A stretch of 39,398 nucleotides of DNA from a virus. Below the pieces are notes generated by a model that was not told the origin of the DNA, did no database searches, and saw nothing but the letters and a program-made list of their open reading frames with translations. The translations under genes were made by a program, and so were the position numbers. The stretch lies in the UHGV virus genome UHGV-0204463; one strand, written 5' to 3'. Positions 1 to 24,251 of the stretch are shown here, piece after piece (position 1 is the stretch's first letter; the number at the start of each line of letters is the position of its first letter).

Positions 1-682
1 CTGATTTCTCAGTTTCTCTGCAAAGCGCTTGGTTTGAGTTTTCTAAGGTCTGCCAAGCTTCTCACACTTCCACCTAACTTAGATTATTCTCCACTGGAGC
101 GTCTATTGTCACACTCGAAAGTTTCGTACCTTACACCTGCACAAATTCCACGTAGTACTTTGCGATTAATAGCTTTTACTATTAGTCCTTTTTACATTGC
201 TGTAAAATCCACCACTAAAATCAATCAGTATCCCAATTCATTTTAGTTATCGACTTATCCCATACTACCCTAGCACATTGTTCAAATGCTCTTCACTAGG
301 TTTAAATCTATTGATTTTTCAATTTTTAATAGTAATCACTCACAAACCTGTAGAAAAAAGAGAGAGGAATTACACCCCATTTCTTTTAGTTTGAGAACGT
401 CTGATTTGTGAGTGATCATTGCAACTTAAACTTACATAGCGCTATCTTGACAAGTGCTTTCAGCGTACGTCTACGTGTAAGCTTAATGCCAAGTTTATTG
501 CAATATTTGCTACCTAGACTAAACGAGACAGAAAGAACTGGACTTTCCACATCCTTATTCTTTATTTTTTTGTAGGTAGCCTCCAAAGATAAGCGAAACG
601 GAGCTAAGATAGGTAATGCATGCCTTACCTCGTTTCCTTATCTTTCGACACTACCATAGTAACATCTAAATATTGATAAAAA

Positions 683-4064: not shown

Positions 4065-4955
4065 TTACTCTAATGGTGGATTTTTAGTATCAAATAAATC
4101 TGTTTGATTCAATGAATCTGAATCAGCTTCATTAATTACTTCTGCTGTTTTCATCGTAGTATTTTCTTCTACTTCCGTTTCGGAAATAATATTTCCATCT
4201 TCTTGCATTTGTTGAACTTTTTCATCTGAAGTTGTCGCTTCTTGCATTTCGATGGACAAAATCCCCCATTTTGATAACATATTTCTTAATACTGTTTTAC
4301 GAGCCATCGCATTATAATCTGTAGCCCAGACACCGCTCAATTTTGTTTTTTCTTTGTCTTTGCTATTTGCAATTCGATGAGCTTCAATTTCTTGTTTGGT
4401 CCAATAAACAGTTTTCTTGAATCCATTTAATAGTTCAAAATATCCAACATATCCGATTACATCGTCTGATTGTCTACCATTTGGATCAAATTCAAATTCT
4501 TCCGTTAACCTGTTCCAACTCAGTAACTCTCCTTCGTAGACTTCAATAACATTTAATGCTTTATATTTACCTGACCGTTGAGCCAATTGAATATACCCTT
4601 TATATCCTAAAATAAATTGGGCTTTCCTCTCCCATTTGCCAGTCTGCTTATTTTTAGTATTAAATGGTACGAGATAGGCATAACCTAGATTTTTATCTAA
4701 TCCTAAATTTAATGTAGCAGCTGTTAAAGCCCCGCTTAAAATAGACATTGGCTCGCTTTCTGCCAAGTAGCTATCATTAGAAACTAAGGTCATGACATTT
4801 GACATAAAAGCATTAGCATTTTCATGAAGAACTTCCTCAAATTTCCGCTTCATAGTAGGAGTATTCATTAATCCTTTTAAACCTAATTGATTCGCAGGAA
4901 CTTGTTTTTGATTTTGTTGTGATAATTGATTTTTTAAGGTCTCGTTTGTTGCCAT
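4065..4955 (-). CDS. recT: RecT-family single-strand annealing recombinase
   Basis: 296 aa; LSGALTAATLNLGLD...GYAYLVPF...FILGYKGYIQLAQRSG typical of RecT. Confidence 0.8.
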   Translation of the reverse strand: MATNETLKNQLSQQNQKQVPANQLGLKGLMNTPTMKRKFEEVLHENANAFMSNVMTLVSNDSYLAESEPMSILSGALTAATLNLGLDKNLGYAYLVPFNTKNKQTGKWERKAQFILGYKGYIQLAQRSGKYKALNVIEVYEGELLSWNRLTEEFEFDPNGRQSDDVIGYVGYFELLNGFKKTVYWTKQEIEAHRIANSKDKEKTKLSGVWATDYNAMARKTVLRNMLSKWGILSIEMQEATTSDEKVQQMQEDGNIISETEVEENTTMKTAEVINEADSDSLNQTDLFDTKNPPLE

Positions 4956-4957
4956 TA

Positions 4958-5899
4958 TTACTTAATCTCCTTTTCTATTAATCTTCGTGGCGTAGTAACC
5001 ATATATATTTCTTCATCTTCTGCAATTTGAGGATATTTTTCAGCAAACTTTTTACTGTTCAATCTTTTAGTAGGTATTTCCTTCCACTCAACAATATGTT
5101 TTTTAGTAATACCAATGCTTGCATTTCTTTTTCCCAATTCGCTTTTTATTTCATTTTCAATTTTTCTAATAGCTACATCCAACTCTTTTTTGGTTTTCTT
5201 CATTTCATTTTTTTGGTCTAACAATTCATCAAACGAAGCAGGTAAAGTAGTTTGCGTTTCTTCTATGTCGCTATACTTATCCTTTAAAAAGTCAGCTGTT
5301 GCCTTACTTCCGTCAATAATAGGTTCAACGCCTTTGATTACGTTATTTTCCCAAAAATCAACTAATTGCTCGGTCAGTACATCGATTAATTCCTGATCAC
5401 GTTCTACCCGTTTCCAAATAAATTTCTGACCACCAATTAAAACTGCAATATAACAATAGTCTTTATTCAAAACATTCATATAATGCTGAACTTGGCAAAG
5501 ATAACTCAATGGCACTTCGTCTCCTGCCCATTCTTTCGCTAAAAATTGATTTGCAGTTTTGCATTCTAGAATGGCATTTTCTCTAACCACTTCTCTATCA
5601 ATATTTGCTCTTAAAAAAGGATGGAGCGAATGTTCGAAGACTTGATTTCTACGACGAACTTTTTTTCCTGTTCTTTCTTGGAACTCTTTCGCAACAACTT
5701 CTTCTAAAACATTTCCCCAATAGGCTGGCTCGCTTTCTGTATCTTTCAGCTCAACTTGACCTGTTTTCTCTAGCCATAATTGATAAGCTGATTTATATTG
5801 ATTCAAGCCTAAAATTGTTGCAACGTCTGATCCTCCAATTCCTTTACGCCTATCCTCAAGCCATTCTTGATGGCTCATGGATAAAGTAGATTGAATCAT
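4958..5899 (-). CDS. YqaJ-like phage recombination exonuclease (lambda-Exo fold)
   Basis: 313 aa; N-terminal GIGGSDVATILGLNQYKS motif; paired with RecT. Confidence 0.8.
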   Translation of the reverse strand: MIQSTLSMSHQEWLEDRRKGIGGSDVATILGLNQYKSAYQLWLEKTGQVELKDTESEPAYWGNVLEEVVAKEFQERTGKKVRRRNQVFEHSLHPFLRANIDREVVRENAILECKTANQFLAKEWAGDEVPLSYLCQVQHYMNVLNKDYCYIAVLIGGQKFIWKRVERDQELIDVLTEQLVDFWENNVIKGVEPIIDGSKATADFLKDKYSDIEETQTTLPASFDELLDQKNEMKKTKKELDVAIRKIENEIKSELGKRNASIGITKKHIVEWKEIPTKRLNSKKFAEKYPQIAEDEEIYMVTTPRRLIEKEIK

Positions 5900-11076: not shown

Positions 11077-12246
11077 ATGAATATTGAAGGTGAAACTATG
11101 GCGAAACTAAATTGGTCCAAAAAATACAAATATGTTTTTTCGTACTCAAACAAAAAAGGAACTTTTTGGGGATATCGCTATCCTTATTACAACTCTCTAA
11201 AACACCGAAAAGAAGCTAGCAAACGTGGATTTGAAAGTGAAAGAGCGGCGAATAAAGCATTGCTAAAAATCCAATATGATTTAGAAACACAAAATACTTC
11301 CTTCATCGAAAATAAACAACTCACCATAGATGAATGGATCAAAGTCTGGATACCTTACGCCCAAGACAATTGGAGTGTTTCAACAAAACAAAATATTGAA
11401 TCTGCTATCAAATTTCACATATCACCATTAATTGGAAATCAGAAACTATCTTCTTTAAATAAGATTACCTATAAGCGAGAATTTATTGACAAATTAAGAC
11501 AAGAAAACAAATATACAGAATCCACGATTCAAACGTGGCATAAAATTGTAATGAGGATGATTAACGCTGCGGTACACAATCAAATCATCCCTAGCAACAC
11601 GCTAACAGGCTTTAAATTTGATTTAAGTAATAATGTTCGTTCATTCTCTAAAAAGGAATTACAGCGATTTATAGCGGTTTTAGAAAACGAAGATATTCAA
11701 ACGCAAGTTATATTTTTGACTCTGCTAAAATCTGGAATGAGAAAAGGTGAATTGATGGGGCTGCGTTGGAGTGATATTGATTTAAACGAAAAATATTTCG
11801 ATATCAATTCTACACGTGGCGATTATGGTGAAAATAAGCCGAAAACAAAAACTAGTATTCGTAAAGTTTATTTTGACAACTCATTACTCACTTTAATAAA
11901 AAAATACAAAAATCATGAGAAAGAACGGCTTTTTAGAGAAGGGATAATTTTAAGCGATAAGGACTATTTTATTTTAAGTTCTCGAAATTTACCTATCAAA
12001 CAATCAAGAATTACGTATATGTTTCGCCTGTTATGTGAAAAAGCAGAAGTTCAAAACATAACCGTACACGGCCTAAGACATACCCATGCAACGTTTTTAA
12101 TTGAAGCAGGAGCAAACATTAAGTACGTTTCAACTCGGTTAGGACACAAGAATATTAATATAACTTTGGATGTTTATAGCGATGTGCTAAAAGAAGAAGA
12201 AAAAGAAACAGCTGATATGATGGATAAACTTATTGAGAACTTGTGA
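11077..12246 (+). CDS. int: tyrosine-type site-specific integrase
   Basis: 389 aa; C-terminal HGLRHTHATFLIEAGANIKYVSTRLGHKNINITLDVYSDV (R..HxxR..Y catalytic pattern). Confidence 0.85.
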   Translation: MNIEGETMAKLNWSKKYKYVFSYSNKKGTFWGYRYPYYNSLKHRKEASKRGFESERAANKALLKIQYDLETQNTSFIENKQLTIDEWIKVWIPYAQDNWSVSTKQNIESAIKFHISPLIGNQKLSSLNKITYKREFIDKLRQENKYTESTIQTWHKIVMRMINAAVHNQIIPSNTLTGFKFDLSNNVRSFSKKELQRFIAVLENEDIQTQVIFLTLLKSGMRKGELMGLRWSDIDLNEKYFDINSTRGDYGENKPKTKTSIRKVYFDNSLLTLIKKYKNHEKERLFREGIILSDKDYFILSSRNLPIKQSRITYMFRLLCEKAEVQNITVHGLRHTHATFLIEAGANIKYVSTRLGHKNINITLDVYSDVLKEEEKETADMMDKLIENL

Positions 12247-12447
12247 TTTGTGGTAAATCTGTGGCAAAAACACTCAAAACCATTGATATATAAACGCTCT
12301 ACCACTCCCCATCTGAAATTCCATAACAATTTAAGGAACAAAAAAATCATACAATACGCATTAAATAGCTGTTTTGTCATTTTTAATAATCTAAGATATG
12401 TAAATAATACCGCAAATCTGTGGTAAATTTTGTGGTAAAAATACACC
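12247..12447. repeat. TGTGGTAAA-type direct repeats just 3' of int (candidate arm-type integrase sites / att region)
   Basis: TTTGTGGTAAATCTGTGGCAAAAA at 12247-12275 and AATCTGTGGTAAATTTTGTGGTAAAAA at about 12412-12445. Confidence 0.35.
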
Positions 12448-12515
12448 TATGAGTATTTGACATTTTATTGAGTTTAGAATACGGCTAACTGAATTAGTTT
12501 GCCTAGAAGGCGACT

Positions 12516-12560
12516 ACGAAAAAAAAGACCTTATTCTTAAAAGAATGGAGGTCTTTTTTG
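12516..12560. terminator. bidirectional terminator hairpin (A8-stem-T6)
   Basis: AAAAAAAAGACCTTATTCTTAAAAGAATGGAGGTCTTTTTT read directly. Confidence 0.45.
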
Positions 12561-12683
12561 TATTATAATAATAATCACACCAACTGACTTTTAGACTTTT
12601 ATTTCAATTTTGTAAGTCAATCGTTAGATATATCAATGGATAAGTAGAATATTTCATTCTATTCTCTTTTTGAGGTGAATACA

Positions 12684-12809
12684 ATGAAAAAAATAATTAA
12701 ACATTTTATGAAACCTGTTGAAGTTTTTGAAACATTAGATGATGATATTGGGATGTTTTTAATCATTTCTATTTGCACAGCTCTGATCTTTACTTTCTTT
12801 AGTAAATAA
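12684..12809 (+). CDS. 41-aa hydrophobic small peptide (below ORF-track cutoff)
   Basis: RBS GAGGTG 7 nt before ATG; MKKIIKHFMKPVEVFETLDDDIGMFLIISICTALIFTFFSK has one TM helix. Confidence 0.3.
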   Translation: MKKIIKHFMKPVEVFETLDDDIGMFLIISICTALIFTFFSK

Positions 12810-12904
12810 AAAATGTGTTAAATAAATTCTCAGATACTTTCCGCAGTATATCAAATTGGGAAGTCAAAAATATCTAAAAAGAATTGACTTTTCATACAAC
12901 GTAT

Positions 12905-12938
12905 TTTTATGGACCATACAGGACTCGAACTGCAGTGC
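12905..12938 (-). other. partial tRNA 3' end (T-loop GTTCGAGTCC plus acceptor ATGGTCC-A) - putative att core copy
   Basis: minus-strand GCACTGCAGTTCGAGTCCTGTATGGTCCA; its acceptor strand is a perfect complement of the 5' strand GGACCAT of the tRNA-like gene at 14078-14150. Confidence 0.4.
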
Positions 12939-12949
12939 AAAAAAATCAA

Positions 12950-12997
12950 GCTTTTTTAAGCGGCTTATTTCCTAAACTGAACTGGAGATAAGCCGTT
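12950..12997 (-). terminator. terminator hairpin downstream of hemH
   Basis: AAGCGGCTTAT...ATAAGCCGTTT stem with flanking T/A runs. Confidence 0.35.
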
Positions 12998-13105
12998 TAA
13001 TTTTTGCTTAATTCTACTATATGCTATACCAGTAAATATATTCGTGCAAACCCTGAATAAATTGTTTAACAAATTCAAACTAAAATAAAAAACTAAAACA
13101 AATTA

Positions 13106-14047
13106 CTACAAAGAAATAATGTCCTTTACTAATTTTGCAAATTCAATATCTCCATTAAATGGATGAACATATTTGTAGACTTCCCCGCCATTTTCTAAAA
13201 AATAGTTTCTGTTTTCGTGTTCCAATTCTTCTATTGTTTCTAGACAGTCTACAACAAAACCTGGTGCAACAATTAATATATTTTTAATACCTTTTGATGG
13301 TAATTTTTTCAAGGTATCATCAGTTGCTGGTTTTAACCATTCAGATGGCCCAAATTTCGATTGATAGGTTTGATAATAACGAATATCTCCTAATTTATCC
13401 ATTATTAATTTTGTTGTTTTAGTACATTCCTTCGGGTAGTTATCCCCATCTTTTACATAAGACATAGGAATTCCGTGGTATGAAAAAACGATAGCATCTA
13501 TTGGACTTTCATTCAAAGCTTCATTTATTTTTTTTGAAAAGTAATCTATATACTGTGGATTATTGTAAAATGATCGAATAAATTTAATATCCACTATCCT
13601 ATCACTTTTTATAAAATAATTCATAACGGAATCAAACACTGATCCTACCGTTGTCCCAGAGTATTGCGGATACATTGGTATGACATTGAGTTCTTCAATC
13701 TCTTTTGATAATAATGTATCTAGAGCAGTTTCTATACTCGGTTCACTATATGACATTCCGATTGTAACTTCCACTTCTGGACATATATTTTTCAAATTTT
13801 CCATTTGTTTCTCAGTATATTCCAAAAGAGGAAATCCATTTTCAGTACAAATTTTTTGATAGAGTTTTGCTGATTTTTTTGGACGTATATTCAAGATAAT
13901 ACCGTTCAAAATCGGTTTCCAAATTATAGGATGTATTTTTATTACTCTTCTATCTGATAAAAAAGTTTTTAAATACTTCCTTACTTCCGTCTTGGAAGAA
14001 TCTTTTGGTGTTCCTAAATTCACTAAGAGAATTCCTGTTCTTTTCAA
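13106..14047 (-). CDS. hemH: ferrochelatase (protoheme ferro-lyase)
   Basis: 313 aa; N-terminal LLVNLGTP, SYHGIP and other ferrochelatase signatures. Confidence 0.9.
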   Translation of the reverse strand: MKRTGILLVNLGTPKDSSKTEVRKYLKTFLSDRRVIKIHPIIWKPILNGIILNIRPKKSAKLYQKICTENGFPLLEYTEKQMENLKNICPEVEVTIGMSYSEPSIETALDTLLSKEIEELNVIPMYPQYSGTTVGSVFDSVMNYFIKSDRIVDIKFIRSFYNNPQYIDYFSKKINEALNESPIDAIVFSYHGIPMSYVKDGDNYPKECTKTTKLIMDKLGDIRYYQTYQSKFGPSEWLKPATDDTLKKLPSKGIKNILIVAPGFVVDCLETIEELEHENRNYFLENGGEVYKYVHPFNGDIEFAKLVKDIISL

Positions 14048-14077
14048 AATAATTCACTACCTGTCTAATTCTATTAT

Positions 14078-14150
14078 CGACCATGATGAATTCGAACCAT
14101 CGACCGAATAGTCATGAGCCATTTGCTCTAACCAGCTGAGCTAATGGTCC
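14078..14150 (-). tRNA. tRNA-Met(CAT)-like gene with G1-G72 acceptor mismatch (possibly pseudo or chimeric 3' end)
   Basis: minus strand GGACCAT-TA-GCTC-AGCTGGTTA-GAGC-A-AATGG-CTCATGA-CTATT-CGGTC-GATGG-TTCGAAT-TCATC-ATGGTCG-A folds as cloverleaf, anticodon CAT; no encoded CCA. Confidence 0.5.
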
Positions 14151-14512
14151 AAGTAATAACTAGCTTATTGGGGATAAAATAGTTCTTACTAGTTATAGCT
14201 TAATATATAACAATTTTACTTTACTGATTTTCAATTTTCAACAAAAAAACGACCACCTTATTGAGAAAAGGCGGTCTGCGTGAAAAAATAAGAGTTTAAA
14301 TATGTATAGATATTTTACAATATCTATTTTTTGAGTTCAATATTTTTATGTAAAAAAAGCCGCCTCATTGGGGTAAGGCGACAAGAGGTAGTAATAAAAT
14401 GAAAAATAAAATTGTTTGGTAAAGATATTTTACCTCTTTCTTTTTTTAATTTCAAGTTTTCATTTTACAAAACAATTGTATTTTATTTATAATTCAAATA
14501 TACAACTGTATT

Positions 14513-14575
14513 AAAAACACCTACTAAACATACACAACTTGGGGAAGTATTGTGCGTCTTAAGTAGGTGTTTTCT
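14513..14575. terminator. bidirectional terminator hairpin with conserved inner loop CTTGGGGAAGTA (copy A)
   Basis: A5-ACACCTAC...GTAGGTGT-T4; homolog of 15910-15973. Confidence 0.45.
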
Positions 14576-14599
14576 ATATACACAAGATAATTTCGTTTT

Positions 14600-14670
14600 A
14601 ACTACTATGATAAATTCGAACCATCAACCTAATGGTCATGAGCCGTATGCTCTAACTAGCTAAGCTAACA
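14600..14670 (-). pseudogene. degenerate second copy of the same tRNA-Met-like sequence
   Basis: shares GGCTCATGAC anticodon loop and GATGGTTCGAATTTATC T-arm with 14078-14150, but acceptor and D stems do not pair. Confidence 0.35.
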
Positions 14671-14744
14671 ATTTTTAAATAAAAAATAACAGATCCTTTA
14701 ACATGTAAAGAATCTGTTTAGAAAAAAGAGTATGCCATAAATCC

Positions 14745-14790
14745 TTGTCTTAAGTTTAACACAAAGACCCTAATCTAAACTAGGGTCTTT
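14745..14790. terminator. bidirectional terminator AAGACCCTA-loop-TAGGGTCTT
   Basis: read directly. Confidence 0.45.
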
Positions 14791-15015
14791 TTATTGGTAC
14801 ATCGATAATAGTTTCTCATAACTAATTACTGTTTTTTCTTTTTTGTTTTTTGGCTTAGAACTGTCTATAATATTAATTACTGCTGAATTAATTAATAAAA
14901 CAGCTATTATACCACTTCTAATTTCTTTTCTGTAAATAAATGATACTTTCTGTCCTTCTTCAAACTGTTTACTTTTATCTGATGGTATAACTTCTTTCCA
15001 TGTTCCAAATCCCAT
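14791..15015 (-). CDS. small membrane protein (ORF track 14791-15042; likely start MGFGTW with RBS AAAGGAGA)
   Basis: one TM helix IIAVLLINSAVINII; bracketed by two terminators. Confidence 0.35.
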   Translation of the reverse strand: MGFGTWKEVIPSDKSKQFEEGQKVSFIYRKEIRSGIIAVLLINSAVINIIDSSKPKNKKEKTVISYEKLLSMYQ

Positions 15016-15074
15016 ATGATGATCTCCTTTCGTTTTCAACATTCAGAGCCTATCAATTTAATCTTATAAAAAAA

Positions 15075-15103
15075 ACGTTCCAATTAAATTGGAACGTTTT
15101 ACC
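15075..15103. terminator. perfect palindrome AAAACGTTCCAATT-TAAA-TTGGAACGTTTT
   Basis: read directly; downstream of csp. Confidence 0.5.
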
Positions 15104-15113
15104 AAAACCTTTA

Positions 15114-15314
15114 TTATGCTTTAAAAATATTAACAGCTTGCATACCGCGCTGTCCTTCTTCAATATCAAAAGTTACTGCTTGTCCTTCTTCTAATGACTT
15201 AAAACCATCCGCTTGAATTGCTGAAAAATGAGCAAATACATCATTGCCATCTTCACCTGTAATAAATCCAAAACCTTTGTCTGAGTTAAACCACTTTACT
15301 GTACCGTTGTTCAT
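15114..15314 (-). CDS. csp: cold-shock protein, CspA family (ORF track to 15335; start [10 protein letters not shown])
   Basis: [15 protein letters not shown] and [12 protein letters not shown] motifs; RBS AAGGAGG. Confidence 0.9.
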
Positions 15315-15909
15315 ATATGTTTCCTCCTTGTGCATACCCTGTATGCGATTTGTTGCAAAAAATGTTTGATAAGCAAAAGGAGAATTATAGTCTTATGTAT
15401 AGCGCTCTCGTTACATGTCAAAATTGATTACTTATTTATAATACCATACTATTTCCTATAAAGCAAATGAGTGTATTAAAACATGATGGACCAATACTAT
15501 AAAAAGGTTATAATCCATCTACTCTAGACATGAAATATAAATATACGATACAAAAACCCCCTTGCACAATTATGATACAAGGGGCCTGTAGTCTTTTACT
15601 ACAAGTAATTGCTTTATTATTCTAGCAAATTAGTTTTGTTAATTCAACCAATAAAATCATTCACGACTTATTAACAAAATTGTGTTTGGCTTTAAATTAG
15701 AACTGGGATATTAAGGAATATCGCTAAAGTAGCTATACTACACTTTTCCACTTATTTAAAAGGAAACTGTTCTCAAGTAATAGTAGCTTAGAAATAGTCT
15801 AATTCTATTTTTATTAGGATAAATTCCGTACACATTATCCTTTTCATAAATTCAAGCTTAACCTTGTTATAAAAAAAGAAAATCGGTTATGATTAACAAG
15901 TAAAATCTA

Positions 15910-15973
15910 AAAAAAACACCTACCGCACAGTCAACTGCTTGGGGAAGTACGTGCATCTGTGGTAGGTGTTTTC
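15910..15973. terminator. bidirectional terminator hairpin with conserved inner loop CTTGGGGAAGTA (copy B)
   Basis: A7-ACACCTACC...GGTAGGTGT-T4; homolog of 14513-14575. Confidence 0.45.
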
Positions 15974-16019
15974 TTATGTAATACAATAGCTTTAAACTAA
16001 GCTACTTATTAGTAAAATT

Positions 16020-16085
16020 AAAATGCTCCTACCTAAGAACTTGTCATAAGATAGGAGCACCTCTTTTCTAAATCGAAAAGAGTCA
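16020..16085 (-). terminator. terminators of the lysis operon (two hairpins then T-run)
   Basis: CTCTTTTC-GATTTA-GAAAAGAG and TGCTCCTATCTT...AGGTAGGAGCA read on minus strand after lysin stop. Confidence 0.4.
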
Positions 16086-16150
16086 TAATATGAAAAGGTA
16101 ACTCTATTGTAAATGAGCTACCTCTAAATTTCAACTGATTTTGCAAAAAA

Positions 16151-17392
16151 TCAATGGCTCAATGTTTGACCAGGATAAATCAAGTTAGGATTTGCTAATC
16201 CGTTTAATGCAGCTAAGGTTTGATAAGTCGTACCAAGCTTAGCTGCAATACTTGATAAATTATCACCGTATTGAACTGTGTAAATGTTGCTTACTACTGA
16301 TCCATTTACTTTCAAAATTTGGCCAGGGTAAATAAGATTTGGATTTGTCAATCCATTTAATGCAGCCAATGTTTGATAGTTTGTTCCGTATTGATAAGCA
16401 ATGCTTGATAATGTTTCGCCATATTGTACCACATGAGTCGCTTCTGGTTGTTTATCAGGAACAGTTGCCGCATCTGGCAATAATTCAATATCGCCTTTGC
16501 TAATCCATGACAAGATACCTTCTAGCAATACTCTGCTTCCAGTTACTTCTTGCACTTTATAGCTGTTTCCTTTTACCCAATCTGGAATAGCTTCGCCAGT
16601 TGCCCAAGCATCTACATTAAATTTTACTTTGACGGTATCACCAACTTTTACTGCAGAAGTAGGTGTTTTTTCAACTTCTTTACCTTCTTCAATAGCTGGT
16701 GTGTTTGTTTCTGGTTGGTTATTTTTTGTATAACCATTATCGGTAATACCTGTTAAATCAACGTTACCATCTAGCCCTCCTGCAACGTAGGTTGACGTGA
16801 ACTGAAAAATACCGATATTTTCAAATGAAGGAAAATAATTGTAATTTGGATAAGGTGTCACTTCATAATCTGGATATTCTGCCATCCATAATTGATACTT
16901 CTTTGCAATTCGTGATAGATCATAAGCTGAAGTAAGATACCCTTTGTATCCGTAAAGCATCGGTGTATATCCAGCCTCTTTGATGTAGTCTAACGCCCAT
17001 AGCGTTACATCCGTCGATTGAACGCCGTCTTCCGCATCTAAGGCGACAATTGATCCCTTTGGTGTTTGAACTTTAGGTAAAAAGTAATCTAATACTTGCT
17101 TTGCATTTTCATAGGTAAGAACATTTTGCCACCATACATACGTATGCGCTCGTTTACCTTGAGCAATCGTACTAGCTACTTGACTAGAATAAGTAACTTG
17201 ATCATAAATCCCATAGTTGTTTTGCCCACCAATTTGTGAAATTGAGAATTTATCATGTGCATAACCAAATGTTGCTTGATACCCATTCCAAATAGACAAA
17301 TCAACGCCTTGGTCTCCTTTTGCAGCAAATGTGCTAACTGGTGATACAAAAAATAAGACTACCAGTAATGTTGCCAATAGTTTCTTTTTCAT
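16151..17392 (-). CDS. endolysin: N-terminal signal peptide, GH25 muramidase domain, two C-terminal LysM repeats
   Basis: [26 protein letters not shown] signal; [12 protein letters not shown]25-like motif; two near-identical LysM repeats; directly after holins. Confidence 0.8.
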
Positions 17393-17626
17393 TTATTTAT
17401 CTCCTTTCCTATCTGATAATCCAGGTGTTGTGGGATCTGTCACAATACCTAGAATAGTTAGCACAACAAATAATGCATTAACAACATCTAGCAGTTGCTT
17501 ATTAATCATTTCAATTTGAAATTTATATCCAAAAGGAACGGCTACTACTTGAATTAATAATAGAACTGCTGGAATAATCGAAAGCCAAAATTGTTTGTTC
17601 TTTATTCTTGATTTCCAATTAATCAT
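17393..17626 (-). CDS. holin, phi-LC3 family (ORF track 17393-17695; start MINWKSRIKNKQFW overlapping upstream stop as ATGATTAA)
   Basis: two TM helices; C-terminal GIVTDPTTPGLSD motif. Confidence 0.65.
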   Translation of the reverse strand: MINWKSRIKNKQFWLSIIPAVLLLIQVVAVPFGYKFQIEMINKQLLDVVNALFVVLTILGIVTDPTTPGLSDRKGDK

Positions 17627-17840
17627 TTTTATTTCCTCCAATCCCTCTAAAGAGGGTTTTATTTTGCTCTTCCAATCGGCTAATGCGTATTTCATGGTTA
17701 TTTAAACGTTCAACAGCTTCCTTTAGTTCTTTCATGCTATCTTCTAATTGAGAAAAGACATGATAAAATTTCATTAATGCGAAAATAATTCCGCCTAAGA
17801 ATGTAATCACTGCTAACCATTGTTCTACTGTTAAGTTCAT
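17619..17840 (-). CDS. holin-like small membrane protein (N-terminal TM plus coiled coil)
   Basis: 73 aa; LAVITFLGGIIFALM helix; translationally coupled to holin. Confidence 0.45.
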   Translation of the reverse strand: MNLTVEQWLAVITFLGGIIFALMKFYHVFSQLEDSMKELKEAVERLNNHEIRISRLEEQNKTLFRGIGGNKND

Positions 17841-18031
17841 CCTGCACCTACTTTCTACTTACAAGAAAAACCGCTTAGCTTTCGCTAAACGGTTCCCCAC
17901 AAATTTTTGTATATTCTTCTTTTGTTAAGCAATTCATAGTCACGTAATCTACTAAATCTTGTTTTGTATAACAATTCCAATCATACAACTGTTTAATATT
18001 ATCGAAACCTGGAAAAGCATTCGTTTTCATC

Positions 18032-18352
18032 TTATTCCGCTCCTTTCGTAAGTTCAGCGACTTGTTTCATCAATTCGCCAGTCATTCTTTGTGTTTGTTG
18101 AATAACTTGATTCTGCAGAGAAACTTGCTTCATTAATTCCGCATTTTGCTTTTGTAAAAGTTCCAATTTCGTTGGTGGTGCTGGCTCTGGGTGTGGTGCA
18201 TTTTCTGGATCATGAATCAATTGTGCGCCATCATAACGCCAATTCATAAAATCAAACGGTTCTTTTTTCACTTCAAGCTTAACATTATCAGGTTGTTCCA
18301 TTGTAGAATAACCTTCTAAATAGCCAATTTTATTTTCAATCCAAATTTTCAT
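18032..18352 (-). CDS. hypothetical phage protein with C-terminal coiled coil
   Basis: 106 aa; sits between fibre genes and lysis cassette. Confidence 0.4.
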   Translation of the reverse strand: MKIWIENKIGYLEGYSTMEQPDNVKLEVKKEPFDFMNWRYDGAQLIHDPENAPHPEPAPPTKLELLQKQNAELMKQVSLQNQVIQQTQRMTGELMKQVAELTKGAE

Positions 18353-18370
18353 AGCTAACTTTCTCCTTTC

Positions 18371-18913
18371 TTAAATTGCATACACCCGTGTCAATACATA
18401 AGGTTTTGCGGTTGTGTTATTATTTTTGTGTCCTAAAATTTGAGTATTGCTTATATAAACATACTTATTGTATGCTGTTCCGTTTAAGGTTTCTAAATGA
18501 TGAACAACAGCACGGCCTCCAAATTCCACTATATGCGTTTTTGGAACAAATACATAGTTCATATCCCAAGGACTTCCTTGACTTGTAGAACTGTCATATG
18601 GTTGATATAAAAATAACCAACCTGAAAGGCATTGATCTAATGGTAAACTTGGATTAATTGATTGATTTTCACCTGCGTACCATGCACCTGACCAAATTTT
18701 TTTACCTACATTTAGTAGTCGATCCATTAAACTTGCATCTAATGATTTATTTCCTACTTTTATCCCATCTTGAAAATTTTTAATTCCGCGCACAGTCTCA
18801 TCACTACCGTCTGCTCTAACGAGTAATCCTGCTACGCCATCAATAGCTGCAGCGTGTGTTTTAAGATAGACTGGTTTTCCTTTTTCTTTTAATTGAACAA
18901 TATCTGTTGTCAT
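18371..18913 (-). CDS. tail fibre / receptor-binding protein (distal module)
   Basis: 180 aa; N-terminal MTTDIVQLKEKG...THAAAIDGVAG shared with next gene. Confidence 0.5.
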   Translation of the reverse strand: MTTDIVQLKEKGKPVYLKTHAAAIDGVAGLLVRADGSDETVRGIKNFQDGIKVGNKSLDASLMDRLLNVGKKIWSGAWYAGENQSINPSLPLDQCLSGWLFLYQPYDSSTSQGSPWDMNYVFVPKTHIVEFGGRAVVHHLETLNGTAYNKYVYISNTQILGHKNNNTTAKPYVLTRVYAI

Positions 18914-19200
18914 TACACTTCCCCTACCTTTTCAAACGTAATTGCTGGCAATCCATCTAGTTTTGTTTTATCTTCTTTAGACATCAAGCCATTTTTTATT
19001 GAGGTTGCAACGTCTGTCGTTGTTGCATTTTGCCCTGCTGGACCTTGCGGACCAACGTCTACTTTATCTCCTTTTGAACCTTGTGGCCCTGGGTCTCCCT
19101 TTTCACCTTTTAATACTTCTGGTTTCCCTTCCACGGCATTCCAATGTGTTTGAGGAAATACCTGTGTTCCTCCTTGTTTTACTTTAACAATGTCTGTCAT
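18913..19200 (-). CDS. collagen-like (Gly-X-Y) repeat tail fibre protein
   Basis: GEKGDPGPQGSKGDKVDVGPQGPAGQ repeats; ends PAITFEKVGEV. Confidence 0.55.
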   Translation of the reverse strand: MTDIVKVKQGGTQVFPQTHWNAVEGKPEVLKGEKGDPGPQGSKGDKVDVGPQGPAGQNATTTDVATSIKNGLMSKEDKTKLDGLPAITFEKVGEV

Positions 19201-19793
19201 TGCACTTCGCCTACTTTCTCAAACGTAATATCAGGTATTCTGTCAATGGCTTCTTGGACTTTTTGGTCGACATATTGTTGATTCACTCCGCCACCATCGC
19301 CACCACCAGTTGCTGAAATCACACCATCTTCTGAAATAGAAATATTCGCTCCAGCAGTATAACCTTTCAACTCTTCCAGTTTCGATTTTAGTTCAGTGGT
19401 AAAATTTTGATCTGTTTGTTTTACCGCAGACAACGTGCCGTCTTCTGCAATTTCTAACAGTTGGCCAACCTTTATTCCGCCCAATTCGTCTGTAGTAGCG
19501 ATTGGAAGAATATACACGCCTCCCTCGCCATTTGACAATCGTTGAAACATTTCAGAAGTGATAATACCGTCTGTTTCTTCTGTTGCGTAAGGAAGTTCTG
19601 TCAGTGCATTTTCTAAGCCTAGATCTGCTTTAGTGATAATTACTGCCCCAGTGTATCCATTAACAGATAATACTTTTGATTGACCCGCAATAATTTTTTC
19701 TAATCCTCGAACAGCAGATACATGTGTTATAGGATAAAACTGACGTTCCACACCATTTTCTTCGGTTTCCATCATGCGTTTTGCTTTAACCAC
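19197..19793 (-). CDS. baseplate / tail fibre protein
   Basis: 198 aa; ends ITFEKVGEVQ; position after BppU-like gene. Confidence 0.45.
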   Translation of the reverse strand: MVKAKRMMETEENGVERQFYPITHVSAVRGLEKIIAGQSKVLSVNGYTGAVIITKADLGLENALTELPYATEETDGIITSEMFQRLSNGEGGVYILPIATTDELGGIKVGQLLEIAEDGTLSAVKQTDQNFTTELKSKLEELKGYTAGANISISEDGVISATGGGDGGGVNQQYVDQKVQEAIDRIPDITFEKVGEVQ

Positions 19794-20667
19794 TTATTTC
19801 ACCCACTTTTTCAAACACATAAGCGTTCTGTTTTGTATCATCAACTGTTGCGATAACCAATGCCCCATCGGTCACAGGATAATCAATTTTTCCAACAATT
19901 TCTGTTTCATGATTCAGCGAAAAAGCATCATCTTGTAAAATAATTAAGTCACTTATTTCGCCATATTCTAACGTATATAAGCGTTTCTCTAATTTCTGAT
20001 ACAAATATTCCATATCTGCCAATAAACGTTCAGAAATTGAATTGTGGCGCACTCCTTGAATGTCTACACGAGCATCCATTAGCTCGGCTAACATCGTACC
20101 GCCAGGATCAATCGTTTTTAAAATATCTTTGATTGATTCGAACCATGAAGTGAAATCTGTTTTTTGCGCATCTCGCCATGCTTCGAACTCTTCTTTTCTG
20201 GCATTCATCCAATCAGTAAAATCGCCCTTATTTTCGTTGATAAAAGCGGTCATGTCTTCGATTAAATCTTCGATGGACTGCCAATAAGAACCCATTTCGC
20301 CCTCTGTTTTAGAAGCAGCATTCACTACAAAGTAAGAAAAGTTTTGCGTTGCACCAATCAGGTTATCACCTTTATGAATACTGAAATATGCTTCTTGTCT
20401 GTGTAACGACTGCATAGAATATTCATCAAAGGTATACTGAATAATCCCTTTTTTGGCATTCACAATTTTTGCTGAACGTTGAATCGGATATTTATTATCA
20501 ATAACCGATTCAAAAAAAACTTCGCAACCTGTTAAATCAAGTGGCCAAGCATTTTCAACTAGTATGGCTTCTAAGACTTCTGTGTTTCGATTTCCTTGTC
20601 GTACATTCTGAATCCCAATGTAATTGTAAGGTTCAGTTGTACTTAGCGTTGCTTGCCATTTAACCAT
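19786..20667 (-). CDS. BppU-like upper baseplate protein
   Basis: N-terminal ATLSTTEPYNYIGIQNVRQGNRNTEVLEAILVENAWP resembles lactococcal TP901-1 BppU N-domain (from memory). Confidence 0.65.
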   Translation of the reverse strand: MVKWQATLSTTEPYNYIGIQNVRQGNRNTEVLEAILVENAWPLDLTGCEVFFESVIDNKYPIQRSAKIVNAKKGIIQYTFDEYSMQSLHRQEAYFSIHKGDNLIGATQNFSYFVVNAASKTEGEMGSYWQSIEDLIEDMTAFINENKGDFTDWMNARKEEFEAWRDAQKTDFTSWFESIKDILKTIDPGGTMLAELMDARVDIQGVRHNSISERLLADMEYLYQKLEKRLYTLEYGEISDLIILQDDAFSLNHETEIVGKIDYPVTDGALVIATVDDTKQNAYVFEKVGEISG

Positions 20668-20685
20668 TGAAAAATCCTCCTTTCG

Positions 20686-23493
20686 TTATTTTGGTGGAAT
20701 AACAATCGATTGAATAGAATTAGCAAAATATAATCGGTCATATTTTGCGACAATTTGCCCTTGCTCGGCGTTCTGTTCTATGGTTTGGATACGTCCGTTA
20801 TTTAAGCCGTAAATCACGCCCGTGTGACCATATGTTGGGTCTACTGTCCAACCTGTTCCCCATTGGCCACCTCGTCTAATATTGACGATTGCTCCTACCA
20901 CTAAATCTTGATACGTTGGATTTTGGATTACTCGCCAACCTACCGCATTCCAATCATATGCTTCACCAATATCTGCAGCAGATGATGTATCACCAATTAC
21001 ATGTGAAAAGCCATAAATTGTTCCTGCACCTAAACCACAGCCGCCCATAAAACCAGAATATTCGGCTGGAACGGCATAACATTGCCCATTACCAAGCCAT
21101 TTGCCCATTAAGGTCTCCAAATGTTCTATGCCAGCTTTTCCTGTTGCAGTAGAAGCTTTCAAATCTTTGAATTTGTCATACCATACTTGTGCATAGGTTT
21201 GTCTTTCTGGATGTGCTGCAGCTGGACGTTCAAAGTTTAATTCAAACGCATAAGCAGCTGTTTTAGGCGAGCTGACAACTTTAAATTCATCAACTGTTAA
21301 TGGACTTACTTGTCCTAACCATTGCCCATTGAACATACACCAATTAATTAATTGAGCTTGGGCTAATGACGTCCTATAGTCTTGTTTGATACCTGCAGCT
21401 GCGATTAAGCGTTGTACATATTCTCGGCCATTCCAAGTTGGTGCACCTACCAATGGATATGCTGAACCGTCCCATTGAACCCATCCGTAAGCTGGACCGC
21501 CTATTTGTTCGGCATCTGGGTTCATACTTGGACCAACTTCTCCTTGTACATTTCCAAGGATACCTGCAGCAGCTGCTTTGCTGTATCCGTTAGCTAATAG
21601 GTAACTCCATAAGTCCCAAGCAAATTTATCTGCATCGCTTGTAACTTCTGATGGATAACCACCTGTTCCAGCTCCAGAACCGCCACCACCATTTTGACCA
21701 GGTATAACTTCTTTGCCGCCCACAATCAATCGATCAACTGTCAGAATTGCTTTACTTCCATTTGGACCAAAAAAGTTAAAATTATTTCCAACAAAAAACT
21801 GTGTAGGACCAGTAATTAAATGTCCTGTGCCTGATTGGTTAGACAAACCAATAATTTTTTGGGGATTATCTGCGACTAATAGTAATGAATTCCCATCAGA
21901 AACTACAGGATTTCCATTTTTATCTGCTAACCCTGGAAAAGGATTTCCCTTTGTTCCCATCGTGCCAACGTGACTATTACCATTCCAAAACTCCATCCCT
22001 TTTTTAGTTAATTCCATGATTTTTTTCTTATTATTCCAAGCTTGTAAAGTACCGTTTACCATACGTAAAATATCTCCACAGCTATTAAATGATGTTTCAA
22101 AAATATTAGATTTTATTTTGCCAGCTCCTATAAAGTCCGCATTCAATACTCCATTAATTCCCCACGCATTTTTAAATGGACCTTTCCAGCCAGTTCTTGA
22201 GAATCCAATTCCTTTGTTATTAATTGCAATCACATCTTTTGCAGTATCCGTGGATTCCGTATCTAAGTAATAATGGGTATTAGGTCGATTTTTAGGATAT
22301 TGAAGTATACTTCCACCTTCAACACCGTTAATCAAATTAGTAATATAATCTACAAAATCACTCATATACTCTTTTTTTGTCAATGTTTTTATAGCTTCTT
22401 GAAAGTCTTGGCTTTGCTGTTTATAAAAAGCAACTTGGATATCTCCCGCAGTGATTTTTATTGTTTTTTCTGCTAAAGCATCATAGACAATTCCTGTAAC
22501 TTTCGTTTGAATGTCAATATCATAAAGCTTGTGGTATACAGTGAATGTATCGAATAAATTATAGTTACGCATCTTAGCAAATTCTTTTGCTTCTTCTGAA
22601 TCTGTAAGTTTCTCAATTTCTAATTCAATAGAAACTTTAGGCTTATCACTTCCTGGATATAATGTAGTGAAGTATTTACTTGCCACTTTATTTAAGCTAG
22701 CTATATCTTTTACTCCTTGATCTTCAGTAAACTGAATGTATTGAGCGTAAACATCAGGATACTTACTGATATATTCGCTTTTAACTGCATTTCCATAAAT
22801 CCGTTGAGAAGTTCCGTCTGCTCCACTTTGAAGCTCTGCAAATGGCAAAACTTTAGTAACAATTGATTGCCAATCAAATTTAATGGTTAATCCTTTTAAA
22901 TCTTTACCATAACGAACAGTTCCAACGTTATCTCGTCCTCTACGCCTTAGCAAAGATAATTTAAAAGGCTCTCGTTTTATTTCTCCGCCCCAGTATTGAA
23001 GTAGAGAACCTTGTTCCCCTGCAATACAATTCAATACATTTCTAGCTTCAAATGTAGTGCTAGAAGCTGTATTTATATCAGAATATAGTTTGATATCACA
23101 AGGTTCGTCCATGTTCTGTTCGATTAATTTCATTGCTTCTGCACCATTACGATTATCAACTGTTACTAGCCTCACTTGTCTGTTTCCTAGCTTATAAGTA
23201 CGAGATTGGGCATAAATAACAATGCTATTAGTAAAAGTATCTTTAAACGTTTGTTTGATCTCAAAAATGTGGTATTCTTCTAAGTCATTTGGCTTTGCTT
23301 TAATTTGATAGCCATTTTCGAAATAATCACTAAATCTGCTAATCGCTGGATAGTCCATTTCTAGTTCATATTTTCCGTTTGCTTCTTCAGTGATTTCGCA
23401 ACGTGTCGCATCAACAAGACGTCCTAATCCATTTGTTGAAAAATCTTTTTCTCCAGGTTTAAAAATAACTGGAATCAAACCTTTCGCCTCCAA
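20686..23493 (-). CDS. tail-associated lysin: tail endopeptidase N-region plus tail-tip lysozyme-like and CHAP domains
   Basis: 935 aa; AAAAGILGNVQGEVGPSMNP lysozyme-like segment; C-terminal NGQCYAVPAEY...GHTGVI (Cys/His) CHAP-like. Confidence 0.75.
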   Translation of the reverse strand: MEAKGLIPVIFKPGEKDFSTNGLGRLVDATRCEITEEANGKYELEMDYPAISRFSDYFENGYQIKAKPNDLEEYHIFEIKQTFKDTFTNSIVIYAQSRTYKLGNRQVRLVTVDNRNGAEAMKLIEQNMDEPCDIKLYSDINTASSTTFEARNVLNCIAGEQGSLLQYWGGEIKREPFKLSLLRRRGRDNVGTVRYGKDLKGLTIKFDWQSIVTKVLPFAELQSGADGTSQRIYGNAVKSEYISKYPDVYAQYIQFTEDQGVKDIASLNKVASKYFTTLYPGSDKPKVSIELEIEKLTDSEEAKEFAKMRNYNLFDTFTVYHKLYDIDIQTKVTGIVYDALAEKTIKITAGDIQVAFYKQQSQDFQEAIKTLTKKEYMSDFVDYITNLINGVEGGSILQYPKNRPNTHYYLDTESTDTAKDVIAINNKGIGFSRTGWKGPFKNAWGINGVLNADFIGAGKIKSNIFETSFNSCGDILRMVNGTLQAWNNKKKIMELTKKGMEFWNGNSHVGTMGTKGNPFPGLADKNGNPVVSDGNSLLLVADNPQKIIGLSNQSGTGHLITGPTQFFVGNNFNFFGPNGSKAILTVDRLIVGGKEVIPGQNGGGGSGAGTGGYPSEVTSDADKFAWDLWSYLLANGYSKAAAAGILGNVQGEVGPSMNPDAEQIGGPAYGWVQWDGSAYPLVGAPTWNGREYVQRLIAAAGIKQDYRTSLAQAQLINWCMFNGQWLGQVSPLTVDEFKVVSSPKTAAYAFELNFERPAAAHPERQTYAQVWYDKFKDLKASTATGKAGIEHLETLMGKWLGNGQCYAVPAEYSGFMGGCGLGAGTIYGFSHVIGDTSSAADIGEAYDWNAVGWRVIQNPTYQDLVVGAIVNIRRGGQWGTGWTVDPTYGHTGVIYGLNNGRIQTIEQNAEQGQIVAKYDRLYFANSIQSIVIPPK

Positions 23494-24251
23494 TTCGGCT
23501 GAACCTTAAACTCTGTTACTTTACCAGTCCAGCGAAAATTATTCTCTCCACATTTTAAAATCGGATAATCTTTAAAAAGTGTTTTATGATCCAAGATTTC
23601 AAATGCTCCACCTGATTTTCTATAAGCTTCTTGTTTTTCTGAATCTATAATGATGTCACCGTTAATTGCTTTTAATGAATATGATTGATTATTGATAAAA
23701 AAAGAAATATCCCCAGACCCCAAAATATGAATAATGGGTTCTGAAGGATATTTTTCTGTATTGATTAACTGATTAGGATTACTTATCCAATATTGGCCAA
23801 TACGATTTTTCTTAAAAGGTCGGATACTTACAGTAAATTCAAAAGGAATTAAAACCCCGCTTTTTCTTGTTCCTGTAAATTTTGGTGGACTCGTTACAAT
23901 CGCCTGATAAATATAATGCTCATCAAAATAGACAATAAAATCAGAATAGTTTCCCATATCGAGCCAAAAGGAAATTTCATCTTCTAAAAAAGAAACTTCT
24001 TGTAAAGTATTTGCTTTCGCATAGCATGTAATGGTACGTTCTACATTTTTATAATATGCAAAATCAACGGCTATTGAATCATTACCCATTCGCTCCCTAA
24101 GCTCTACCACACGTCCTGCAGAAAGTCGTTCAGGTCTTTCTCTCATAAATACATTGAATTCAGAACTATGTTTTCCATTAAGAAAAAACTGTCCTCTTTT
24201 AAATTCCACCAAAAGCACCCCCCGTTGCATCACTATCTCTATTTTTAACAA
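23475..24251 (-). CDS. distal tail protein (Dit)
   Basis: 258 aa between tape-measure and tail lysin genes. Confidence 0.65.
   Translation of the reverse strand: MLKIEIVMQRGVLLVEFKRGQFFLNGKHSSEFNVFMRERPERLSAGRVVELRERMGNDSIAVDFAYYKNVERTITCYAKANTLQEVSFLEDEISFWLDMGNYSDFIVYFDEHYIYQAIVTSPPKFTGTRKSGVLIPFEFTVSIRPFKKNRIGQYWISNPNQLINTEKYPSEPIIHILGSGDISFFINNQSYSLKAINGDIIIDSEKQEAYRKSGGAFEILDHKTLFKDYPILKCGENNFRWTGKVTEFKVQPNWRRKV

Follow-up and report, generated by a model that had tools for sequence, protein, structure and literature searches.

The virus genome UHGV-0204463, analysed here over its whole length of 39,398 nucleotides (39.4 kb; hereafter the window), is a temperate Enterococcus siphophage in its excised and circularly permuted form, in which the ferrochelatase gene hemH lies among three tRNA-derived sequences. 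All three are on the minus strand, at positions 14077-14150 (the middle copy), 14604-14672 (a pseudo-tRNA, hereafter psi) and 12910-12930 (the stump). Read along that strand, the lysin gene is followed by a cold-shock protein gene (csp), orf83, psi, two small promoter-to-terminator units, the middle copy, hemH, a remnant of an IS3-family insertion sequence (IS), the stump, a further 590 bp and the phage attachment site (attP), beyond which the integrase gene lies on the opposite strand (Table 1).

The window phage is of the pp4 type of E. faecalis V583. Prophage pp4 (ef1988-ef2043) was previously reported to carry a ferrochelatase and to integrate within a comGD-like gene (Matos et al. 2013, PMC3675006). 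Across positions 12302-24000 the window has about 98% DNA identity to Enterococcus phage SEsuP-1 (MZ333458), and its replication module and early region are phiFL-like, unlike those of SEsuP-1. The window has the same integrase, att core, comGD-like integration site and ferrochelatase cargo as pp4 and SEsuP-1, and the same order of lysin, csp, tRNA and hemH. The papers and records on those two phages annotate only 'tRNA-Met' and 'ferrochelatase'; the pseudo-copy, the stump and the IS remnant are not described in them. With these three features, the ferrochelatase gene of a very common E. faecalis prophage can now be annotated as flanked by a pseudo-tRNA, the stump of a tRNA and a relic of an IS3 element.

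The hemH segment splits what was formerly a single tRNA gene, with its left edge in the anticodon loop of the middle copy and its right edge at the T-arm of the stump. Homologous recombination at the tRNA, combined with IS3 insertion and deletion, is taken with moderate confidence to be the cause. An origin by integrase, which an earlier note on this DNA had proposed, is not supported, and the arrangement is phage mosaicism of the ordinary sort, in a prophage type that had been described before.

Three tRNA-derived sequences of one family

An nhmmer profile built from 18 intact phage relatives and run on the 39-kb window gave three significant matches, at 14150-14079 (E 4e-19), 14668-14614 (E 8e-11) and 12931-12910 (E 6e-4), the last covering profile positions 53-74; the five remaining matches were at chance level (E at least 1.3). 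ARAGORN called one tRNA(CAU), at 14076-14151 on the minus strand. The Rfam tRNA model scored the middle copy at 53.6 bits and psi at 28.2 bits, just under the gathering score of 29; psi is not called by ARAGORN, and the stump is called by neither of these detectors. The series of three tRNA-derived sequences recognised in the earlier note is confirmed by ARAGORN, Rfam and the family profile, and the pieces are paralogues left over from a single family of phage-borne tRNA(CAU) genes.

Table 1. Features of the accessory region and integration module, with window coordinates
Feature	Position	Strand	Evidence
Tyrosine integrase, pp4-type	11077..12246	+	Pfam Phage_integrase E 1.3e-29
Functional attP core CCACTCCCCATCTGAAATT	12302..12320	+	Single exact match to published pp4 core
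Native 3' flank of truncated tRNA	12861..12909	-	Homologous to sequence downstream of intact tRNA(CAU) in L053 and L031 (TATGAAAAGTCAATTCTTTT...)
3' stump, positions G53-A73 of 'type A' phage tRNA(CAU)	12910..12930	-	Unique exact 21-mer GTTCGAGTCCTGTATGGTCCA
One-ended IS3-family remnant: terminal inverted repeat and frameshifted transposase C-terminus	12931..13080 (left limit, about 13080, approximate)	-	Stop codon 12966-12968
Ferrochelatase (hemH) cargo	13106..14047	-	Pfam Ferrochelatase E 2e-107
Degenerate tRNA(CAU), middle copy	14077..14150	-	Positions 1-36 as intact phage tRNAs; 3' half with G37, U40, A41, U61, G72
Terminator-like hairpin (14276-14251), then promoter-like site (14241-14213)	14213..14276	-	Consensus scan; upstream of tRNA-hemH unit
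Full-length pseudo-tRNA (psi), acceptor and D-arm decayed	14604..14672	-	Rfam 28.2 bits; nhmmer E 8e-11
orf83 and cold-shock protein gene (csp), cassette with psi	14791..15335	-	Pfam CSD E 4e-29
Endolysin	16151..17392	-	GH25 and LysM domains on homologous gene in L010-L018; SEsuP-1 annotation as lysin

Intact members of the family lie just downstream of the lysin gene in phages IME197, phiFL1A and EFC-1 ('type A', GGACCATTAGCTCAGYTGGTTAGAGCAAACGGCTCATAACCGTTCGGTCACAGGTTCGAGTCCTGTATGGTCCA), and intact relatives were also found in at least 69 fetched loci (designated by L numbers), nearly all of them IMG/VR viral contigs of Enterococcus-phage-like character. Scans of IMG/VR found the type-A T-arm and acceptor in 67 viral contigs, nearly all with the full-length gene. 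A sister allele, 'type B', is present in L031, L053 and L065, its sole difference from type A being the T-arm (GATGG/CCATC). Every intact relative starts with GGACCAT; the group scores 67-73 bits with the Rfam tRNA model, its predicted fold keeps the acceptor and T stems, and a compensatory double change in the anticodon stem (AACGG/CCGTT versus AACCG/CGGTT) shows covariation within it. From these sequence features the intact genes look functional, and the family is probably of tRNA-Ile2 type. The pairs C4:G69 and C5:G68 presumably fit the TilS determinants of tRNA-Ile2, and one GenBank record labels a homologue tRNA-Ile.

The tRNA typically lies downstream of the lysin gene, at the head of the accessory region near the attachment site, amid highly variable cargo. 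Its flanks reassort, with 19 upstream and 18 downstream flank types occurring in 42 combinations among 66 loci. The region between lysin, tRNA and att holds annotated Abi, TIR and DUF4231-TIR genes in other Enterococcus phages (L019, L021), and other unrelated, unannotated open reading frames (ORFs) in L053, L065 and L068, which we take to be putative DUF4065/SocA-like pairs. Given this varied cargo, the tRNA marks a cargo hotspot, and since a sequence of about 74 nt is all that the unrelated neighbouring modules have in common, it is the crossover point in phage/prophage recombination. The family is therefore a clean natural case in which cargo, including Abi, TIR and DUF4231-TIR defence genes, is swapped among Enterococcus phages with a 74-nt tRNA gene as the point of crossover; this is useful for mapping prophage cargo hotspots and involves no new kind of biology.

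A decayed type-A tRNA is also present in L101 (IMG/VR contig 3300045988_112863), where the anticodon loop is lost and the 5' half scrambled, and where the T-arm and the acceptor 3' strand are intact; pp4 is thus not alone in having a decayed copy of the gene.

The left edge of the hemH segment

From about 310 nt upstream of the middle copy through its position 36, the window is 95-97% identical to two hemH-less loci (L093 and L075); identity then collapses and is gone past the tRNA. The hemH segment therefore has its left edge at the anticodon loop, the breakpoint being at position 36/37. Positions 1-36 are identical to those of the intact relatives except for a polymorphic C29U. Among the features that are invariant in tRNAs, the middle copy breaks the 1:72 pair of an elongator (G1.G72, which the earlier note had noticed and which Rfam flags as non-canonical), the A37 of an ANN-reading tRNA (replaced by G37) and G53:C61 (replaced by G53.U61). 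Its Rfam score is about 18 bits under those of the intact relatives, the acceptor and T stems are lost from its predicted minimum-energy fold, and it is a damaged tRNA.

A41, U61 and G72 of the middle copy are common to the psi family. A candidate reading of the middle copy as a type-A 5' half and a psi 3' half joined by an integrase was revised, as the intact type B alleles share its T-arm; by its appearance the 3' half is thus that of a family member altered by mutation or conversion.

The middle copy could alternatively be a working tRNA kept by selection in a tRNA-hemH operon, either decoding AUA as a lysidine-modified tRNA-Ile2 or forming a processed 5' leader, with odd bases that are adaptive. 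It is still called by ARAGORN and Rfam, its C4:G69 and C5:G68 pairs presumably suit TilS, and in the window U29 can again pair with the mutant A41. Upstream there is a promoter-like site, the consensus scan predicts no terminator in the interval between tRNA and hemH, and hemH itself is rich in AUA, at 47.8 per 1000 codons (15 of its 33 Ile codons), compared with 14.2 in other phage ORFs and 7.4 in the host genes flanking the prophage. This explanation is nonetheless doubtful: G37, G53.U61 and G1.G72 violate near-universal features at the cost of score and stems given above, and position 29 (window 14122) has three alleles (C, U and A), one of them non-pairing, among pp4-like copies that are otherwise 97-100% identical. 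The middle copy is also dispensable, having been destroyed along with the promoter in a pp4 sub-lineage (L142-L149) in which hemH is intact. A role specific to AUA-rich cargo was rejected, because ORFs up to 2.5 kb from intact tRNAs use AUA at 17.8 per 1000 codons and those at least 4 kb away at 19.7; no cargo-specific role is therefore claimed for the tRNA.

As a damaged tRNA, the middle copy may be transcribed with hemH and may act as leader of the hemH transcript, judging from pattern matches to promoter and terminator consensus. The putative terminator and promoter at 14213-14276 lie in a region that is 95-97% conserved upstream of the intact tRNAs in L093 and L075, as do two small promoter-to-terminator units between psi and the middle copy (14455->14359 and 14340->14251, within window 14251-14455 on the minus strand). 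These units may be small RNAs; the first of them weakly resembles Enterococcus sRNA 84 (31 bits versus a cutoff of 52).

The right edge of the hemH segment

The 21-mer that defines the stump occurs once in the window, with 0 occurrences expected by chance, and the sequence made up of it and its flank is identical to the tRNA 3' end in phiFL1A (27/27) and in IME197 (24/24). The stump is an in-situ relic of a full gene formerly at this place, because the flank beyond it resembles the flank of the intact tRNAs in L053 and L031. The earlier note had placed a 3' fragment at 12905-12938. A real tRNA 3' end is indeed present there, but only 12910-12930 is tRNA-derived and the rest of the right side, 12931-12938, is the terminal repeat of the IS3-family remnant. 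The same note had observed that the acceptor strand of the fragment would pair perfectly with the 5' strand of the middle tRNA; it does so, and the pairing is a family-wide feature because of the GGACCAT start common to every intact relative. The stump and psi are most likely inert today.

The IS remnant is read in two minus-strand frames, FEFVKQFIQGLHEYIYWY.. and ..RIKQKLNGLSPVQFRK*, which are separated by a frameshift. The repaired 37-mer matches Pfam rve_2 (E 4.8e-13) and the C-termini of IS3/ISEfa10 transposases in 2879 plasmid records, with identity up to 62%; of the DDE transposase, with its rve/rve_2 C-terminus, that characterises the IS3 family, the C-terminal tail alone is present. 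The end of the remnant, ...GCACTGCA, resembles the right end of ISEfa10, ...GTCACTACA. Its terminal ...CACTGCA abuts G53 of the stump directly (junction sequence ...TTTTTTTGCACTGCA), which is comparable to the ISEfa10 right end (...GGGGGTCACTACA). The sole IS end in the window is at 12931-12951, with no second end in the window; an IS3 element has two terminal inverted repeats (5'-TG...CA-3'), and this single repeat therefore belongs to a remnant rather than an element. No intact copy of the IS was found by blastn against plasmids, and a viral scan with the IS end gave only pp4-like sequences. As the stump abuts an IS3 terminal repeat, transposition, and then an internal deletion, formed the right edge of the hemH segment, which is not a recombinase core.

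The attachment site and the integrase explanation

The att core of pp4 was sequenced experimentally as CCACTCCCCATCTGAAATT (PMC3675006, Table 2). This 19-mer has one occurrence in the window, 56 bp past the integrase stop codon and 590 bp from the stump. The left arm of attP is identical to that of attL (L004), the junction on the integrase side in copies integrated in the comG operon, and the right arm is identical to that of attR (L009), their hemH-side junction; 12302-12320 thus has both the core of attB, attL and attR and the arms of the prophage junctions. Those junctions coincide with none of the tRNA pieces, and the sole integrase gene, at 11077-12246, goes with the comGD attP. An identical integrase protein is encoded 28 bp from comG operon genes in at least seven of 24 contigs, and identical integrase and hemH proteins are present in hundreds of E. 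faecalis assemblies, with the comG operon always adjoining. The stump was considered as the attP core of the phage, copying the 3' end of a host tRNA, and is ruled out by the pp4 core and the prophage junctions at 12302-12320. tRNA fragments near a prophage end are thus not necessarily att sites; here the true site is known experimentally.

The earlier note had interpreted the locus as the product of an integrase swapping tRNA 3' ends, with the hemH segment bounded by att-like copies. The segment does sit inside a former single tRNA gene, between the point at which identity to L093/L075 breaks off and a type-A 3' end 1.15 kb downstream, but att-like junctions are not supported: between the tRNA's 3' end (GGTTCGAATTCATCATGGTCGA) and the stump (AGTTCGAGTCCTGTATGGTCCA) at most 6 consecutive nt are common, and their T-arms differ. 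Neither does the swap itself agree with a segment that holds no integrase, an att core that lies elsewhere and a right edge formed by an IS end. In all pp4-like prophage loci examined the arrangement is fixed and no integrase-associated junction is present, an outcome that the earlier note had named as refuting its interpretation.

A more elaborate form of this explanation is an integrase-mediated island, in which a hemH element with an attP copying the 3' half of tRNA(CAU) inserted at the anticodon loop and displaced the original 3' half, after which IS3 insertion and deletion removed the integrase and positions 37-52. Such an event would account for the breakpoint at the anticodon loop, for derived substitutions that all lie in the 3' half and for the position of the old 3' end distal to the cargo, and an IS-associated deletion could have erased the integrase. 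It is considered unlikely, given that hemH and the IS3 remnant are the only contents of the segment, with no integrase, excisionase or other element genes, that the unlike T-arms and at most 6 consecutive nt shared by the two ends leave no att-like core, and that the fragment begins at an IS end and not at a crossover. Chimeric tRNAs with the same breakpoint also occur with no insert (L105, L117, L122 and L142-L149), no displaced fragment lies beside other loci with the tRNA within the DNA fetched, and no intact element was found in viral, genome and metagenome scans.

The pseudo-tRNA and the csp-orf83 cassette

Three allele types of psi are present among relatives; that of the window shares CATGACCATT with the middle tRNA, and the other psi alleles lack it. 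The whole csp-orf83-psi cassette occurs with no tRNA-hemH in L068, only psi and the adjoining spacer occur in L069, and tRNA-hemH is present with the cassette absent in L153. psi travels with the separate csp-orf83 cassette. A second degenerate copy at 14600-14670, as the earlier note had it, is real and spans 14604-14672; the nested integration that the note read from the series of copies does not fit, as psi is a full-length copy that lies upstream and is linked to a cassette of its own, as those three loci attest.

Recombination between tRNA copies and the proposed history

The loci of the pp4 sub-lineage with hemH about 97% identical (L142-L149) have one hybrid with the 5' part of psi and the 3' part of the tRNA (positions 4880-4975), the 524 bp between the two copies being deleted; the putative hemH promoter was lost in this deletion and hemH is intact. 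L105, L117 and L122 are recombinants between alleles that crossed over in the anticodon loop, and their 30:40 pair is broken. The psi of the window, for its part, has taken up CATGACCATT from the tRNA. The tRNA copies demonstrably recombine by homology at the anticodon region, and repeat-mediated deletion is ongoing.

The proposed history would begin with an ancestral type-A tRNA struck by an IS3-family element at T-arm position 52/53. Recombination within the 5' half of the tRNA or its anticodon loop, and a deletion with one end in the IS, would then have brought the 3' half of a foreign tRNA, hemH and the tail of the IS into the old gene, between its positions 36 and 53. The third copy, psi, would have come with the csp-orf83 cassette, and the copies would matter today mainly as direct repeats that are still recombining. 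The order of events and their execution by RecA or phage recombinases are presumed; the window phage encodes RecT and a YqaJ-family exonuclease.

Several observations weigh against this history. The upstream region and positions 1-36 match L093/L075 and the downstream flank resembles that of L053/L031, and no single genome has both: viral scans with the stump and flank, or with the flank alone, found no relative in which an intact type-A tRNA is followed by the window flank, empty-site scans of viral contigs returned only pp4-like sequences and L031/L053, and a metagenome scan for an intact T-arm with the window flank gave 0 matches. No full-length IS is present at position 52/53 in any relative, and genome, metagenome, phage database and protein searches did not find a donor of hemH with the mutant tRNA half. 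The lineage-specific substitutions of the middle tRNA are all 3' of the anticodon, a tRNA-targeting integrase would leave an anticodon-loop breakpoint too, and the history takes at least three events.

A further and speculative possibility, to which little probability is assigned, is that the phage tRNA(CAU) is a dedicated docking site for accessory cargo such as defence genes and hemH, of which the pp4 triple would be a fossil record of successive dockings. The gene could in that case be an attB for integrase-less miniature cassettes mobilised in trans, or a hotspot for RecT/YqaJ-type recombinases.

The hemH cargo gene

hemH is always found in the same pp4 context, and the identical protein is present in 1476 index blocks. 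The region has a G+C content of 29%, which suggests a low-GC donor; AUA use in phage ORFs generally is about 2-2.5 times higher than in sampled host genes. Protein searches gave E. faecalis copies at 97% identity or more among the matches listed, and SEsuP-1 is the sole hemH match in the phage database. The closest relatives are hemH of Lapidilactobacillus at 64%, the only match in species-representative genomes, and a gene at 59% from the metagenomes, both of them chromosomal, and no tRNA(CAU) lies beside either.

The foreign composition, and nearest relatives that are chromosomal genes of other Lactobacillales, would also suit an aberrant excision resembling specialised transduction, in which an ancestor integrated beside a host tRNA(CAU) and hemH took up both on imprecise excision. 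This is very improbable: the present att lies in comGD, with comG genes as the host flanks, the chromosomal hemH relatives have no adjoining tRNA(CAU), the region upstream of the tRNA and its 5' half are phage sequence common to many phages, and the distal junction is the end of an IS.

When hemH is compared with the features of a moron, its location in the interval between lysis cassette and att and its deviant composition fit; the promoter-like site and upstream terminator are pattern matches, and no terminator was found after hemH in the consensus scan.

Comparison with known systems

Phages and genomic islands integrate into tRNA genes by means of tyrosine integrases, and a duplicated tRNA 3' end then marks attL and attR, as was reportedly set out by Campbell in 1992 and Williams in 2002. 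The window resembles such cases in the replaced 3' part of its tRNA, the former 3' end beyond the cargo and the breakpoint in the anticodon loop. It differs from them in that the segment has neither an integrase nor identical core repeats, an IS cuts the fragment, the real att is 590 bp away in a protein-coding gene, and the target tRNA is phage-borne and not chromosomal.

Modular phage evolution proceeds via homologous recombination at short conserved linkers between modules (reportedly the work of Susskind and Botstein, and that on boundary sequences of lambdoid phages), and has in common with the present locus a short conserved sequence between reassorting flanks, with crossovers visible inside the phage tRNA(CAU). 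Here, however, a tRNA gene forms the linker and presumably owes its conservation to a function of its own, and unequal exchange left extra copies.

Among insertion sequences, ISEfa10 of E. faecium (IS3 family) shares with the remnant the C-terminal rve_2 motif and the ...CACTNCA with which the terminal repeat ends, whereas the window keeps about 150 bp of the right end, with a coding part that is frameshifted and has at most 62% protein identity to ISEfa10. The family is also similar to phage tRNAs that offset codon use, in that its intact members look functional and AUA is enriched in phage ORFs to the extent given above; the difference is that the window's own copy is damaged, and dispensable in the sister lineage. 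Latilactobacillus phage P1, with 'tRNA-Ile plus transposase', was considered as a parallel and rejected because its architecture differs.

Other features of the window

The endolysin is the boundary at which the late operon ends and the accessory region begins. Terminator-like hairpins are strongly enriched at window 12250-16200, where 9 were observed versus 1.1 expected; most of them are on the minus strand. The accessory region thus resembles a series of short transcription units that are independent of one another.

A ROOL RNA (Rfam RF03087) is present at window 1-324 on the minus strand, with 144.7 bits versus a gathering score of 99.1; the match spans model positions 1-318 of 574, the rest being interrupted by the start of the window. 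SEsuP-1 has a tRNA-Asn near the gene for the ArpU regulator (L001 11761-11833), which the window lacks because its early region is phiFL-like. In the 3.2-Mb metagenome contig VOFL01000095.1 (L151, L158), two pp4-like hemH regions occur about 40 kb apart, with hemH at 100% and 94% identity to that of the window, and could reflect tandem or double lysogeny at or near one site.

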